Origin: an uncultured Gemmatimonadaceae bacterium
GTDB lineage: Bacteria; Gemmatimonadota; Gemmatimonadetes; Gemmatimonadales; Gemmatimonadaceae
DNA: 37,080 nt
Direction of reading: 5' to 3'
Assembly: GCA_963822945.1 (NCBI GenBank)
Contig: CAWGJO010000028.1
Span: 1 to 37,080 of the forward strand
The notes under the pieces were generated by a model, which had not been told where the DNA came from, did no database searches, and was given only the letters and a program-made list of their open reading frames with translations. Positions 23,802 to 27,115 of the stretch are shown here, piece after piece (the first letter of the stretch is position 1; each line of letters begins with the position of its first letter). Position numbers and translations under genes: made by a program.

Positions 23802-25180
23802 AGGATGTTCCCCGGCGCGAAGATCCCGTCGGGATCCAACGCGGTCTTCAGGGCGCGCATCACGTCCATCTGCATGCCCGAGAGTTGCAGCGGCAGCCAC
23901 CGCGTCTTGAGCTTGCCGATGCCGTGCTCGGCCGAAACCGTGCCGCCCATCGCGATCACGTCGCGCAGTGTCTGCTCCACCACGGCCTCCATCCGTCGAA
24001 CGTCCTCGGGATCGCGCGCCACGAAGTTCTGGTGCGGATGCCCGTTCCCCAGATGCCCGTACACGATCCCCGGTGGAATGCCCGCTTCCCGCGCATGCCG
24101 GCGGGCCATGGCCACGGCCGCGGCCGCCAGAGGATAGGGCACCGCCCAGTCGGTGGACACGCGGCGACCGCCGGATGCGAGATACGGCGCCACGCGCTCG
24201 TGCATCGTCGCCGGTACCGCGTGCCGGAGACGACGCGCTTCCCGGATGGCCGCGTCCCCCTCGAACACCCGAATGTCGGCCTCGTTCCCCCCGAACCGCC
24301 CGGCGAGTTCGAGCCACGCGTCGAGCGGCGGCTCGCTGCCGTCGGTGGTCTCCTCCACGTACACCATCGCTCCCGAACCCGCTGCCCACGACGCCGACTC
24401 CGCTTGGCCGCGGACGATGGCAAACGACTCCGCGTCGAAGTACTCCAGGCAACGCGGTCGGACCGCACGCGACTCGCGCGCGGCGACGATGAACGCCAGC
24501 GCCCGGGCTTCGTCCGGCAGCGGGATGGCCAGCCCCACCTCGCGGGCCGGCCGCTCGAGCAGCGCCAGCTCGGCTTCCACCACGATGCCGAGCGTGCCCT
24601 CGCTGCCCACGAACCAGTCCACCGGGTCCTGAACGGGGAACAGCCCGGCCGTGTTCTTCTCCACGGCTGGGCGGCGCACCTCGATCGTGGATCCGTCGGC
24701 CGTCACCACGGTGAGCGCCCGCACATGGGCGCGCGTGGGGCCGTAGCGCAGCGTGCGTGGACCTGACGCATTGCAGGCCACGGCGCCGCCCACGGTGCAC
24801 TCCTGATCGCTCGTCGGGTCGGGCGCAAAGAACAACCCGTGCGGCGCGAGCGCGCGCTGCAGGTCGCCGAGCAGCACCCCCGGTTCCACGCGCACGGTGC
24901 GCGCGCGTTCGTCCACGTCCATCACGCGCGCCATGCCGCGTGTGGAGAGCAGGATGCCGCGGTCGGTGATCGACGCGCCGGTGGTGCTGGTCTGCGATCC
25001 GGCCGCGGTGACGGGCGTGCGGTCGGCCGCGGCGCGTCGCACGATCTCCGCGACCTCGGCAGCGGAGCTCGGGCGCGCCACGGCGTCGGGGACGCGCCAC
25101 AGCCCCGACGCATCGCGGGCGTGCGCCTCGCGCACCGACCGGTCGTGGGCGAGCGCCGGCGCTCCCGCGGTATCAGCCAT
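23798..25180 (-). CDS. FAD-binding oxidoreductase of the GlcD / D-lactate / D-2-hydroxyglutarate dehydrogenase family
   Basis: CTVGGAVACNASG, GSEGTLG, YGHLGNGHPH, SAEHGIG, LDPDGIFAPG; ATG 25180 overlaps the serA stop. Confidence 0.88.
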   Translation of the reverse strand: MADTAGAPALAHDRSVREAHARDASGLWRVPDAVARPSSAAEVAEIVRRAAADRTPVTAAGSQTSTTGASITDRGILLSTRGMARVMDVDERARTVRVEPGVLLGDLQRALAPHGLFFAPDPTSDQECTVGGAVACNASGPRTLRYGPTRAHVRALTVVTADGSTIEVRRPAVEKNTAGLFPVQDPVDWFVGSEGTLGIVVEAELALLERPAREVGLAIPLPDEARALAFIVAARESRAVRPRCLEYFDAESFAIVRGQAESASWAAGSGAMVYVEETTDGSEPPLDAWLELAGRFGGNEADIRVFEGDAAIREARRLRHAVPATMHERVAPYLASGGRRVSTDWAVPYPLAAAAVAMARRHAREAGIPPGIVYGHLGNGHPHQNFVARDPEDVRRMEAVVEQTLRDVIAMGGTVSAEHGIGKLKTRWLPLQLSGMQMDVMRALKTALDPDGIFAPGNIL

Positions 25181-26799
25181 TGTCGGCAAACTGCACCACG
25201 GTGGCGGCGTTGACGTCGGGCAGCGCGAGCAGTGCGCGGCGCACGGGCTCGGTGACGGTGCCGTCGATGGAGATCACGGCCAACGCCTCGGCGCCCTGCG
25301 CCAGGCGCGCCTGGTGGTACTCGGCGATGTTCACCCCGGCGGCGCCGAGCGCGGTGCCCACGTGCCCGATCACGCCCGGCACGTCGCGGTTGCGGAGCAC
25401 GATGAGCGTGCCGCGCGGCGCGACGTCCACGTGGAAGGCGCCGATGCGCGTGAATCGCGGCGGGGCATCCAGCGCGGCCACCCCGCCCACCCGCATCTCG
25501 TCGCCGTCGGCCGAGAGGCGCACCTCCACGGCGCGGGCGTGCGGCGGCACCCCCGTCTCGGCGTACTGCAGTTCGATGCCGCGCGACTGCGCCACGGCGC
25601 GCGCGTTGATGATGTTGAGCCGTTCGCGCTCGACCACGCCTTCAAGTGCGCCGAGCGCCGCGGCGGCGAGCAGCGGGCCGCGGCCGGGGGCGAGTTCCGC
25701 GCCCAGCCGCACCGTGACCGACGAGATGGCGCGCGCGCCCCGTTCGGCCAGCAGGGCACGCGCCACGGCTGCCGAACGCCGGATGAGCAGCATGGCGGGC
25801 TGCAGCGCCTGCCAGTCGCCGCCCGCTTCGGCCACGTTCAGCGAGCGGGAGTACTCGTCGTTGAGCAGCGCGTCGCGCACCGCCGCGCAGGCGTCCACCG
25901 CCACGTTCCGCTGCGCCTCTTCGGTGCTCGCGCCCAGGTGGGGCGTGAGCAGCATGTGTGGCGCGCGGCGGAACGGATGGTCGTCGCGCAGCGGTTCCCT
26001 GGTGTAGGCATCCACGCACGCGCCGGCCAGGTGTCCGGAGACGAGCGCGTCGGCGAGCGCCTGTTCGTCCACGATGCCCCCGCGCGCCAGGTTGCAGACG
26101 ATGGCGCCCTCGCGGAGGCGGGCCAACTGCTCGGGGCCGATCATGCCCCGGGTCTCGTCGGTGAGCGGCGTGTGCACGGTGAGCACGTCGCAGCTGTCGA
26201 GCAGCACGTCGAGCGTGGTGCAGCGCTTCACCTGCAGGCTGTCGAAGCGTTCCTGCGAGATGTAGGGGTCGTAGCCGAGTACGGGCATCCCGAACGCGCG
26301 GGCGCGCACCGACACCTCGCCGCCGATGCGGCCCACGCCGACGATGCCGAGCGTTCGGCCCTTGATCTCACGGCCGAGGAGCTGCGAGCGCTCCCAGCGT
26401 CCCTCGTGCACCGATTGGTCGGCGCGCGGCACGTGGCGCAACAGGCCGATGAGCGTGGCGAAGAACAGTTCGGCCACGGCCACCGTATTGCCGGCCGGCG
26501 CGTTGATCACCGCGATGCCGAGCGCGGTGGCGGCGTCCATGTCCACGTTGTCCACGCCCACGCCGGCGCGGCCGACCACGCGGAGCCGCGTGCCCGCGCG
26601 CAGCAGCGGTTCGGAGATGCGGGTGGCGCTGCGGCCGACGATGGCGTCGTAGTCGCCGATGCGCGGCCAGCAGCTCCTGCTCCGGCAGTGTCGGCAACAC
26701 GTCCACGCTGAAGTCGGACACCGCCTGGAGCAGGGCGACGCCTTCGGGGTCGACCTCGTCGGTCACGAGAATGCGGAAGGGCATCGAGCGCGGCGGCAT
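25173..26799 (-). CDS. serA: D-3-phosphoglycerate dehydrogenase (long form with ASB and ACT domains); frameshift at ~26666
   Basis: FRILVTDEVDPEG.../IGDYDAIVGRSAT..., GRAGVGVDNVD, NAPAGNT, GVGRIG, NLARGGIVDE, TPHLGASTEEAQ, ACT domain NRDVPGVIG..G..LG..GVNIA. Start is ATG 26799 or 26784. Confidence 0.92.
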
Positions 26800-26821: not shown

Positions 26822-26894
26822 CTGGGGCGGGAGGACTCGAACCTCCAACTTCCTGATTAACAGTCAGGCGGTCTGCCAGTTGACCTACGCCCCA
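26822..26894 (-). tRNA. tRNA-Asn (anticodon GTT), CCA not encoded
   Basis: Full 73-nt cloverleaf: TGGGGCG TA GGTC AACTGGCA GACC G CCTGA CTGTTAA TCAGG AAGTT GGAGG TTCGAGT CCTCC CGCCCCA G. Confidence 0.97.
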
Positions 26895-26917
26895 TCGGTC
26901 GTACGAAACCTGCGGTC

Positions 26918-26954
26918 AAACAAAAAGCGCCCACCGGTGGATCTGGCGGGCGCT
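26918..26954 (-). terminator. Intrinsic terminator (attenuator) located upstream of tRNA-Asn
   Basis: Minus strand AGCGCCCGCC-AGATCCACC-GGTGGGCGCT then TTTTGTTT; 10-bp stem with one G:U; ends 23 nt before the tRNA 5' end. Confidence 0.85.
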
Positions 26955-26992
26955 GGCGTATCGGATGAACCGCGTGCGCGCTAACCAGACCC
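26939..26992 (-). promoter_or_regulatory. Antiterminator helix competing with the terminator
   Basis: GGGUCUGGU (26992-26984) pairs with GCCAGAUCC (26947-26939), and GCGC (26981-26978) pairs with GCGC (26953-26950). This sequesters the terminator 5' arm and loop. Confidence 0.75.
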
Positions 26993-27046
26993 CTTGGGGG
27001 AGGCCCAATTATTCCGATTGTTGGAATTGCGGCGAATGCGGATCAT
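26981..27046 (-). CDS. Asn-rich attenuator leader peptide, 21 aa (MIRIRRNSNNRNNWASPKGSG)
   Basis: ATG ATC CGC ATT CGC CGC AAT TCC AAC AAT CGG AAT AAT TGG GCC TCC CCC AAG GGG TCT GGT TAG. Five Asn in codons 7-13; lies between a promoter and a terminator upstream of tRNA-Asn. SD is weak (GAGCAGAG). Confidence 0.8.
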   Translation of the reverse strand: MIRIRRNSNNRNNWASPKGSG

Positions 27047-27085
27047 GATCTCTGCTCGTTGGTGATGGTGCAGCCTGCGGACCGG

Positions 27086-27115
27086 AGGATACGCCGGGCC
27101 GGCGGGTGCTGTCAA
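27086..27115 (-). promoter_or_regulatory. sigma70-type promoter for the leader-tRNA-Asn unit
   Basis: TTGACA (27115-27110), N18, TATCCT (27091-27086), then a GC-rich discriminator CCGGTCC; predicted start ~27079. Confidence 0.75.

Follow-up and report, generated by a model that had tools for sequence, protein, structure and literature searches.

The window analyzed here, a stretch of 37,080 nucleotides from an uncultured Gemmatimonadaceae bacterium, carries on its minus strand a promoter-like site, a short leader ORF rich in asparagine codons, overlapping RNA hairpins, a tRNA-Asn gene and serA (Table 1). We checked the locus coordinates given in an earlier note against the sequence, and all of them are correct on the minus strand.

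Table 1. Features of the locus, in the order in which they would be transcribed (window positions).
Feature	Position	Strand	Details
Sigma-70-type promoter-like site	27086..27115	minus	TTGACA (27115-27110), 18 nt, TATCCT (27091-27086)
Leader ORF	27046-26981	minus	21 codons, 21 aa, MIRIRRNSNNRNNWASPKGSG, then stop
Regulatory Asn codons 7, 9, 10, 12, 13	27008..27028	minus	AAU, AAC, AAU, AAU, AAU
Possible 1:2 protector/pause hairpin	26987..27006	minus	-8.1 kcal/mol; weak, putative
Antiterminator (2:3)	26939..26992	minus	terminator 5' arm and loop, paired with the final leader codons and the stop
Intrinsic terminator (3:4)	26918..26954	minus	10-bp stem, 9-nt loop, U tract 26925-26918
tRNA-Asn(GUU), second type	26822..26894	minus	Rfam RF00005, 69.7 bits
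serA (phosphoglycerate dehydrogenase)	25173..26784	minus	TIGR01327 over cut-off; frameshifted near 26660

Asparagine occupies five of the 21 leader codons, the last of them at 27010-27008. In a scan of the genome, this leader was the sole ATG-started ORF of 10-32 amino acids that contains at least four Asn and is followed by a terminator, and the scan found no ATG-started Asn leader ahead of any other gene. The sigma-70-type site is unique in the 4.5 kb between 22900 and 27400, where shuffles lead one to expect 0.1 such sites, and homologous leaders are preceded by similar promoter-like sites. Rfam matches in the window are confined to RF00005 (tRNA); leader families, T-boxes and riboswitches gave no match there at gathering score.

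Competing helices and the position of the ribosome

In the antiterminator, GGGUCUGGU (26992-26984) pairs with 26947-26939 and, across a 2x2 loop (UA/CC), GCGC at 26981-26978 pairs with 26953-26950. This helix, which matches exactly the pairing described in the earlier note, has a folding energy of -28.8 kcal/mol (z -4.47), a value that 0 of 200 shuffles equal. The terminator (26954-26926 plus the U tract) folds at about -19.8 kcal/mol (z -4.41), again equalled by 0 of 200 shuffles; a simple terminator scan misses it because the loop limit of that scan is 8 nt. The two helices are mutually exclusive, as had been claimed, because both use 26953-26945, and the 15-nt gap from the last Asn codon to the start of the antiterminator arm at 26992 was likewise confirmed. 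It had further been suggested that a weaker hairpin could act as a 1:2 protector. The hairpin is present, but it does not rise above chance: its z-score is +0.58, 141 of 200 shuffles fold as well, and in the homologue alignment 77% of its cells are paired (32 of 500 shuffles are as high), with compensatory changes no greater than in shuffles.

We consider it highly probable, from sequence and predicted folding, that these elements form a conserved, Asn-sensing leader-peptide (ribosome-mediated) transcription attenuator before a second tRNA-Asn gene. RNA polymerase would start near 27079, with a ribosome following on the leader. When Asn-tRNA is ample, the ribosome would reach the stop codon and cover the arm 26992-26978, the terminator would form, and transcription would end at the U tract. 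When Asn-tRNA is scarce, the ribosome would pause on codons 7-13 and leave the arm free. The freed arm would then pair with the 5' arm of the terminator while the 3' arm has yet to be transcribed, and polymerase would continue into the tRNA.

To represent the ribosome, we made everything 5' of A-site+12 unavailable for pairing and also tried footprints from +9 to +18. With the A-site+12 mask, the probability of the antiterminator in the window is 0.99 at codons 9, 10 and 12, 0.88 at codon 13 and 0.67 at codon 7, whereas that of the terminator is 1.0 with a masked ribosome anywhere from codon 16 to the stop. The flip thus comes two to three codons past the last Asn. Footprint choice shifts this point by at most three codons; with the +18 footprint, a stall at codon 13 gives a preference for the terminator (0.67). 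The earlier model of a ribosome stalled on the Asn codons versus one at the stop is thus reproduced by masked folding, and it agrees with the covariation of the helices in 35 homologues and with the conserved spacing described below.

Conservation and possible translation of the leader

The exact second-type tRNA pattern occurs in at least 120 loci of an estimated 450, from records whose titles are nearly all Gemmatimonadota. Pattern loci and 30 loci from relatives, each with a matching tRNA and no less than 200 nt of sequence before it, made up 139 distinct loci, in which we called an attenuator when an ORF of 12-30 amino acids with at least two Asn was followed within 40 nt by a terminator of -12 kcal/mol or lower. 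Among the matches listed, 53 of the 139 have an attenuator upstream of the second-type tRNA (49 with at least three Asn). Further second-type loci gave two calls in 13, and a Longimicrobiales record (L256) adds one more leader. The same call returned 0 of 393 control stretches (downstream stretches and reverse complements) and 0 of 40 housekeeping tRNA-Asn copies. The remaining 86 of the 139 second-type loci, again among the matches listed, have no leader, and many of them carry a promoter-like site immediately before the tRNA. In one group (L017, L058, L103, L127, L135, L146 and L149), leaderless second tRNA-Asn genes lie beside what appear, by eye, to be 23S and 5S rRNA genes.

Genes for tRNA-Asn with G2-C71 are common in other phyla (about 6900 stretches), and 121 such loci sampled outside Gemmatimonadota yielded two weak leader-plus-terminator calls (L273, L331). 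Acidobacteriota loci L225, L226, L231, L234, L237 and L254 hold a tRNA-Asn with a UGGGGCG acceptor stem, a different D arm and no Asn leader.

In the 53 leaders, 20.7% of residues are asparagine and 147 of 228 Asn codons are AAU; the corresponding figures for the long ORFs of the window genome are 2.8% and 1218 of 7228. The last Asn is followed by six to nine codons in 46 of the 53 leaders and by exactly eight in 27. We aligned 35 of the 53, those that align by eye with the window's leader. In this alignment the antiterminator has 89% of 348 cells paired with 17 two-sided changes, and the terminator 94% of 314 cells with 16 two-sided changes; 0 of 500 shuffles are as high for either helix, counts that are not probabilities because kin among the 35 leaders are not independent. 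Slid registers of both helices pair at most 51% of cells. Independently of any alignment, the duplex between the leader tail and its own terminator arm beats letter shuffles (p<=0.05) in 33 of 53 loci and synonymous recodings in 28 of 53, and the own partner is stronger than the cross-locus mean in 44 of 53. Terminator 5' arms readily find partial partners in GC-rich sequence, and the entire 78-nt region folds with a z-score of only -1.35, as might be expected of chance complementarity. Such an origin is extremely improbable given the 0 of 393 controls, the compensatory changes in both helices and the pairing letters, which differ in distant lineages.

Across the 53 loci, the fraction of the terminator arm paired with the leader stays at 0.52-0.58 until the ribosome passes the last Asn and is down to 0.12 four codons later. 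In equilibrium folding with the complete terminator, a ribosome on an Asn codon abolishes it in only 25 of 53; if the final 4 nt of the 3' arm are left out, the switch works in both directions in 43 of 53. This indicates that the order of folding during transcription must matter: by these models, the switch in many homologues would not be thermodynamic, and the antiterminator has to form first.

The structures could be real and the signal still not be stalling, if the terminator leaks or if a protein or another RNA sets the switch, with the Asn-rich ORF untranslated. Ribosome-binding sites are indeed weak, a Shine-Dalgarno-like word preceding only 14 of the 53 leaders, and in the window the antiterminator forms even without a ribosome as long as the 3' arm is missing (0.99). 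Candidate regulatory codons of Streptomyces ilvB were moreover dispensable (PMC1262725). Against an untranslated ORF speak the frame, length and Asn content, which are conserved while the letters diverge, and the distance from last Asn to stop, with its peak at eight codons. In 19 of 53 loci (for example L016, L026 and L044) the leader start codon lies 32-40 nt past the -35 hexamer, a spacing that suggests that the leader may be read from a leaderless message; 19 other attenuated loci have a 5' UTR of about 30 nt. In the RNA-library contig of a relative, all three differences inside the leader ORF are synonymous, and the lack of any T-box or riboswitch match in the window also disfavors a switch of another kind. 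We regard a signal other than stalling as unlikely.

Contigs from the RNA libraries of two studies, one covering 26845-27087 and the other 26836-27017, span leader, terminator and tRNA. They have a depth of about 2, carry neither strand nor ends, and come from runs found by these same words. One of them reaches 27087, beyond the predicted start, and may therefore be DNA or upstream read-through. That the contigs bridge the terminator lends weak support to read-through. Runs X7 and X8 hold short pieces only, from more distant organisms.

The likely regulated gene

The attenuator proposal can be extended to its target, which the earlier note had left unnamed: the regulated gene is likely the second tRNA-Asn(GUU), at 26894-26822, which begins 31 nt past the end of the terminator stem. 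This tRNA has the acceptor stem UGGGGCG/CGCCCCA (with U1-A72 and G2-C71), G73 and an 8-nt D loop, and its CCA is unencoded. ARAGORN finds two tRNA-Asn genes in the genome; the other, housekeeping copy lies on contig C1, immediately preceded by a promoter-like site, and lacks a leader. A tRNA-Sec (UCA) was also called by ARAGORN, at G000:C12:9704-9800 (-). The second type has 49 of 74 letters in common with the housekeeping tRNA-Asn, and 54, 51 and 48 of 74 with the Lys, Ala and Asp tRNAs, respectively. As its identity to the housekeeping copy is no higher than to Lys or Ala tRNAs, the second type is not a recent duplicate. Five of its seven acceptor pairs are as in tRNA-Asp and its D loop is as in tRNA-Gln(CUG); a specifically Asp-like acceptor stem or Gln-like D loop was not established, the tRNA as a whole being equally near to Lys and Ala tRNAs. 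C38, an AspRS determinant, is present in only 6 of the 53 regulated tRNAs.

Downstream, serA starts 37 nt past the tRNA with no terminator in between, and genes for an FAD oxidase and a serB-like phosphatase come after it. The leader could thus control these protein genes, sensing Ser or Asn, with the tRNA as a bystander, and Ser does make up 13% of leader residues. Its distribution points elsewhere: Ser accounts for 20% of residues after the last Asn and 9.7% before it, where Asn accounts for 32%. Synteny mostly refutes a protein-gene target, as serA lies behind the tRNA in only 9 of the 50 attenuated loci with enough downstream DNA. Of five attenuated genomes in the same genus whose downstream genes differ, four show no match to the serA query used here at E<=1e-80; in the fifth, serA lies elsewhere and has no Asn leader. 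We find control of the protein genes very unlikely. Because serA follows in so few loci, the tRNA is the likely target, and serA would likely be a passenger on the read-through transcript. The loci were chosen by their tRNA, and its presence in 53 of 53 reflects that choice.

At G010:C2:746287-746332, G115:C8:85426-85489 and G030:C1:177693-177739, the second tRNA-Asn has its 3' part repeated 4-32 kb downstream. The repeats resemble those that integrating elements leave behind, which may explain the variable downstream genes. The frameshifts at window position 26660 (serA) and at G000:C12:133300-135100 (asnS) are likely assembly errors and not genuine gene breaks.

Asparagine supply and a possible purpose of the second tRNA

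Our counts among relatives cover 61 genomes, complemented by a separate draw of 401. Every genome counted is to some degree incomplete, and assemblies often miss tRNA genes. The counts include genomes flagged unpublished (G022, G097, G135 and G214), and no conclusion depends on these alone. The gene asnS matched in 56 of the 61 relatives and is present in the window genome as frameshifted pieces. The gene gatB is over the cut-off in the window genome, matched in 59 of the 61 relatives, and is retained even in genomes that have both GlnRS and asnA; with gatB so widespread, a joint disappearance of the second tRNA and gatB is uninformative as a criterion. Asparagine synthetases are rare: asnA occurs in 7 of 61 relatives and was not found in the window genome (88% complete), and AsnB exceeds the curated cut-off in 1 of 61. 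The window genome's AsnB-like genes score 190.5 bits against an asparagine synthase B cut-off of 499 and sit in apparent surface-polysaccharide and peptide-modification clusters, judging the neighbors by eye. An archaeal-type non-discriminating AspRS was found in 0 of the 61 genomes. The GlnRS gene glnS occurs in 14 of 61 relatives; no GlnRS was found in the window genome, and GatCAB is therefore needed there for Gln regardless. With AsnRS and, judging from gatB, GatCAB present and asparagine synthetase mostly absent, new Asn would come from AspRS and GatCAB acting on tRNA-Asn.

This pathway suggests what the attenuator may be for. Extra tRNA would be of little help to AsnRS when free Asn is lacking and would be useful if Asn is made on the tRNA. 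More second tRNA would then give a higher flux of asparagine made on tRNA by AspRS and GatCAB, and the tRNA gene would take the place that a biosynthetic operon holds in classical attenuators. Judging from sequence features, we see evenly balanced chances that the induced tRNA serves the AspRS/GatCAB route; that the second tRNA is specialized for this route is a tentative proposal. With similar reserve we suggest a division between two tRNAs, in which a constitutive tRNA-Asn serves AsnRS, an attenuator-controlled second one serves AspRS/GatCAB, and the identity of the tRNA, not a second synthetase, decides the route. If this division holds, the tRNA gene amounts to an inducible asparagine-biosynthesis operon.

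The same attenuator could serve a different purpose. The second tRNA-Asn may be spare decoding capacity charged by AsnRS, with no role in Asn synthesis, and be made whenever Asn codons are read slowly for any cause (too little tRNA, damage or cleavage). Such spare capacity fits the switch and competes only with the purpose that we propose for it; we consider it a serious possibility, if somewhat short of probable. Consistent with it, both tRNA-Asn types keep the AsnRS elements G34, U35, U36 and G73, as listed in the table of PMC9976931. A spare copy could, however, be a simple duplicate, yet the two types differ as described above and coexist in 39 of 61 relatives (the second type occurring in 42), and the leader is never found on the housekeeping type (0 of 40). 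The uselessness of extra tRNA to AsnRS under limiting free Asn, itself an inference, also counts against spare capacity.

Further evidence comes from the distribution of asnA. Among the relatives, the second tRNA type occurs in 0 of 7 genomes with asnA versus 42 of 54 without. G050 and G052 (87% complete) belong to one genus; the former has the second tRNA and no asnA, the latter asnA and no second tRNA. In the 401-genome draw the second type occurs in 208 genomes, 1 of 16 with asnA (some of these being partial matches) versus 207 of 385 without. That the second type is nearly missing where asnA occurs speaks against spare capacity, and the many asnA-less genomes that also lack the second type (178 of 385 in the 401-genome draw) speak for it. 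The genomes with asnA group in families mostly without the second type anyway, and the contrast is confounded by kinship. The second type is found in 3 of 14 genomes with GlnRS versus 39 of 47 without. Its acceptor-stem pairs include listed GlnRS determinants (PMC9976931), so GlnRS may select against the second tRNA.

The features of the two tRNAs bear on their use by GatCAB. The enzyme requires U1-A72 (PMC1635274, PMC2811023), and an added nucleotide 20a lowers amidation of Neisseria tRNA-Asn almost tenfold (PMC1635274). U1-A72 is present in the regulated tRNA and in the housekeeping copy too. The regulated tRNA has no 20a, and the window genome's housekeeping copy has it (9-nt D loop). An 8-nt D loop is found in 53 of 53 regulated tRNAs, a count partly fixed by the search pattern. 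A housekeeping copy with 20a occurs in 20 of 61 genomes (16 in one genus), and 19 of these 20 also carry the second type; in four genomes from a single genus, the housekeeping copy has 20a and the second type is missing. G2-C71, a minor AspRS determinant that bacterial tRNA-Asp conserves (PMC9976931), is present in the regulated tRNA, the housekeeping copy having C2-G71. Against the proposed purpose count those four genomes, the frequency of G2-C71 among tRNA-Asn genes of other phyla and the retention of gatB beside GlnRS and asnA.

At two positions occupied by His and Gly in the Asp/Asn enzyme of PDB 5w25, the single bacterial-type AspRS carries Leu and Ala, and it shares the Leu with the discriminating E. 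coli enzyme. We take these two positions to govern Asp/Asn discrimination. AspRS thus appears discriminating at both, in favor of spare capacity. In family f3 (G038, G040, G042, G044, G046, G048, G050, G056, G058 and G060), AspRS has Gly at the position where the solved Asp/Asn enzyme has it; GlnRS occurs in most members of the family and asnA in several, and the second tRNA-Asn is missing from all except G050. We discarded the AspRS signature as a marker that tracks the second tRNA: Gly marks f3, but several genomes without the second tRNA lack Gly (35 of 41 sequences recovered).

Leader-peptide attenuators of amino-acid operons are classically represented by E. coli trpL, hisL, pheL, thrL and leuL. 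The element described here resembles these, and the actinobacterial trp attenuators (PMC1262725), in its leader of regulatory codons, its overlapping antiterminator and terminator and the use of ribosome position as the switch. It differs from them in that Asn would be sensed and a tRNA regulated, in matching no Rfam leader family and in its weak 1:2 hairpin. Attenuators also precede the Streptomyces synthetase genes trpS and leuS (PMC1262725) and, as uORFC-8-2, cysS in Rhodobacterales (PMC8632094). In common with these and with E. coli pheM-pheST, the Gemmatimonadota element would provide feedback on the supply of charged tRNA; the synthetase-gene attenuators raise the charging enzyme, whereas it would raise the tRNA. 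T-boxes bind uncharged tRNA directly, without need of translation. They likewise place transcription antitermination under the control of tRNA charging, but no T-box match was found in the window.

Bdellovibrio, S. aureus, Thermus and Deinococcus combine AsnRS and non-discriminating AspRS/GatCAB in one cell, according to the sections of PMC4206432 considered. They resemble the lineage studied here in having AsnRS and GatCAB, mostly no AsnA or canonical AsnB, and a tRNA-Asn with U1-A72; as far as those sections describe, what sets the routes apart in them is the enzymes (an additional or a relaxed AspRS) and not a second, separately regulated tRNA-Asn. The same sections estimate that about 30% of genera surveyed could use both Asn-tRNA routes and pose the balance between the routes as an open question. 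If the second tRNA is a preferred AspRS/GatCAB substrate, its attenuator would offer one answer to this question.

A literature search over titles and the starts of abstracts, with most subscription journals outside its scope, found no report of tRNA-gene attenuation, of an Asn leader or of attenuators in Gemmatimonadota. Enzyme and synthetase genes are the known targets of leader-peptide attenuation, and the search gave no paper in which it acts on a tRNA gene or responds to asparagine. New here would be the apparent target, a distinct isodecoder whose features suit GatCAB, in a lineage that mostly lacks asparagine synthetase. A tRNA gene that senses the decoding of its own codons would form a compact feedback loop, and it would give a function to tRNA isodecoders annotated as redundant, in an abundant and little-studied phylum.

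The same genome contains other candidate leaders. At G000:C20:770547 (+; L390), a His-rich leader (MHHRSHHHHG...) and terminator precede hisG (TIGR00070 over cut-off), and at G000:C21:291745 (-; L391), a leader with a Thr run and a terminator precede the threonine-tRNA ligase gene thrS (TIGR00418 over cut-off). These two suggest that the lineage likely employs such attenuators. At G000:C6:18310 (+; L389), a Tyr/Trp-rich leader (MTTHLCAWYSYWYS...) and a strong terminator stand before a phenylalanine 4-monooxygenase-like gene, which is below cut-off and has an apparently broken frame; control of an aromatic hydroxylase by an attenuator that senses Tyr or Trp would, if true, be unusual. Short Trp-containing ORFs, each followed by a terminator, lie at G000:C26:158106 (+) and G000:C27:7008 (-).
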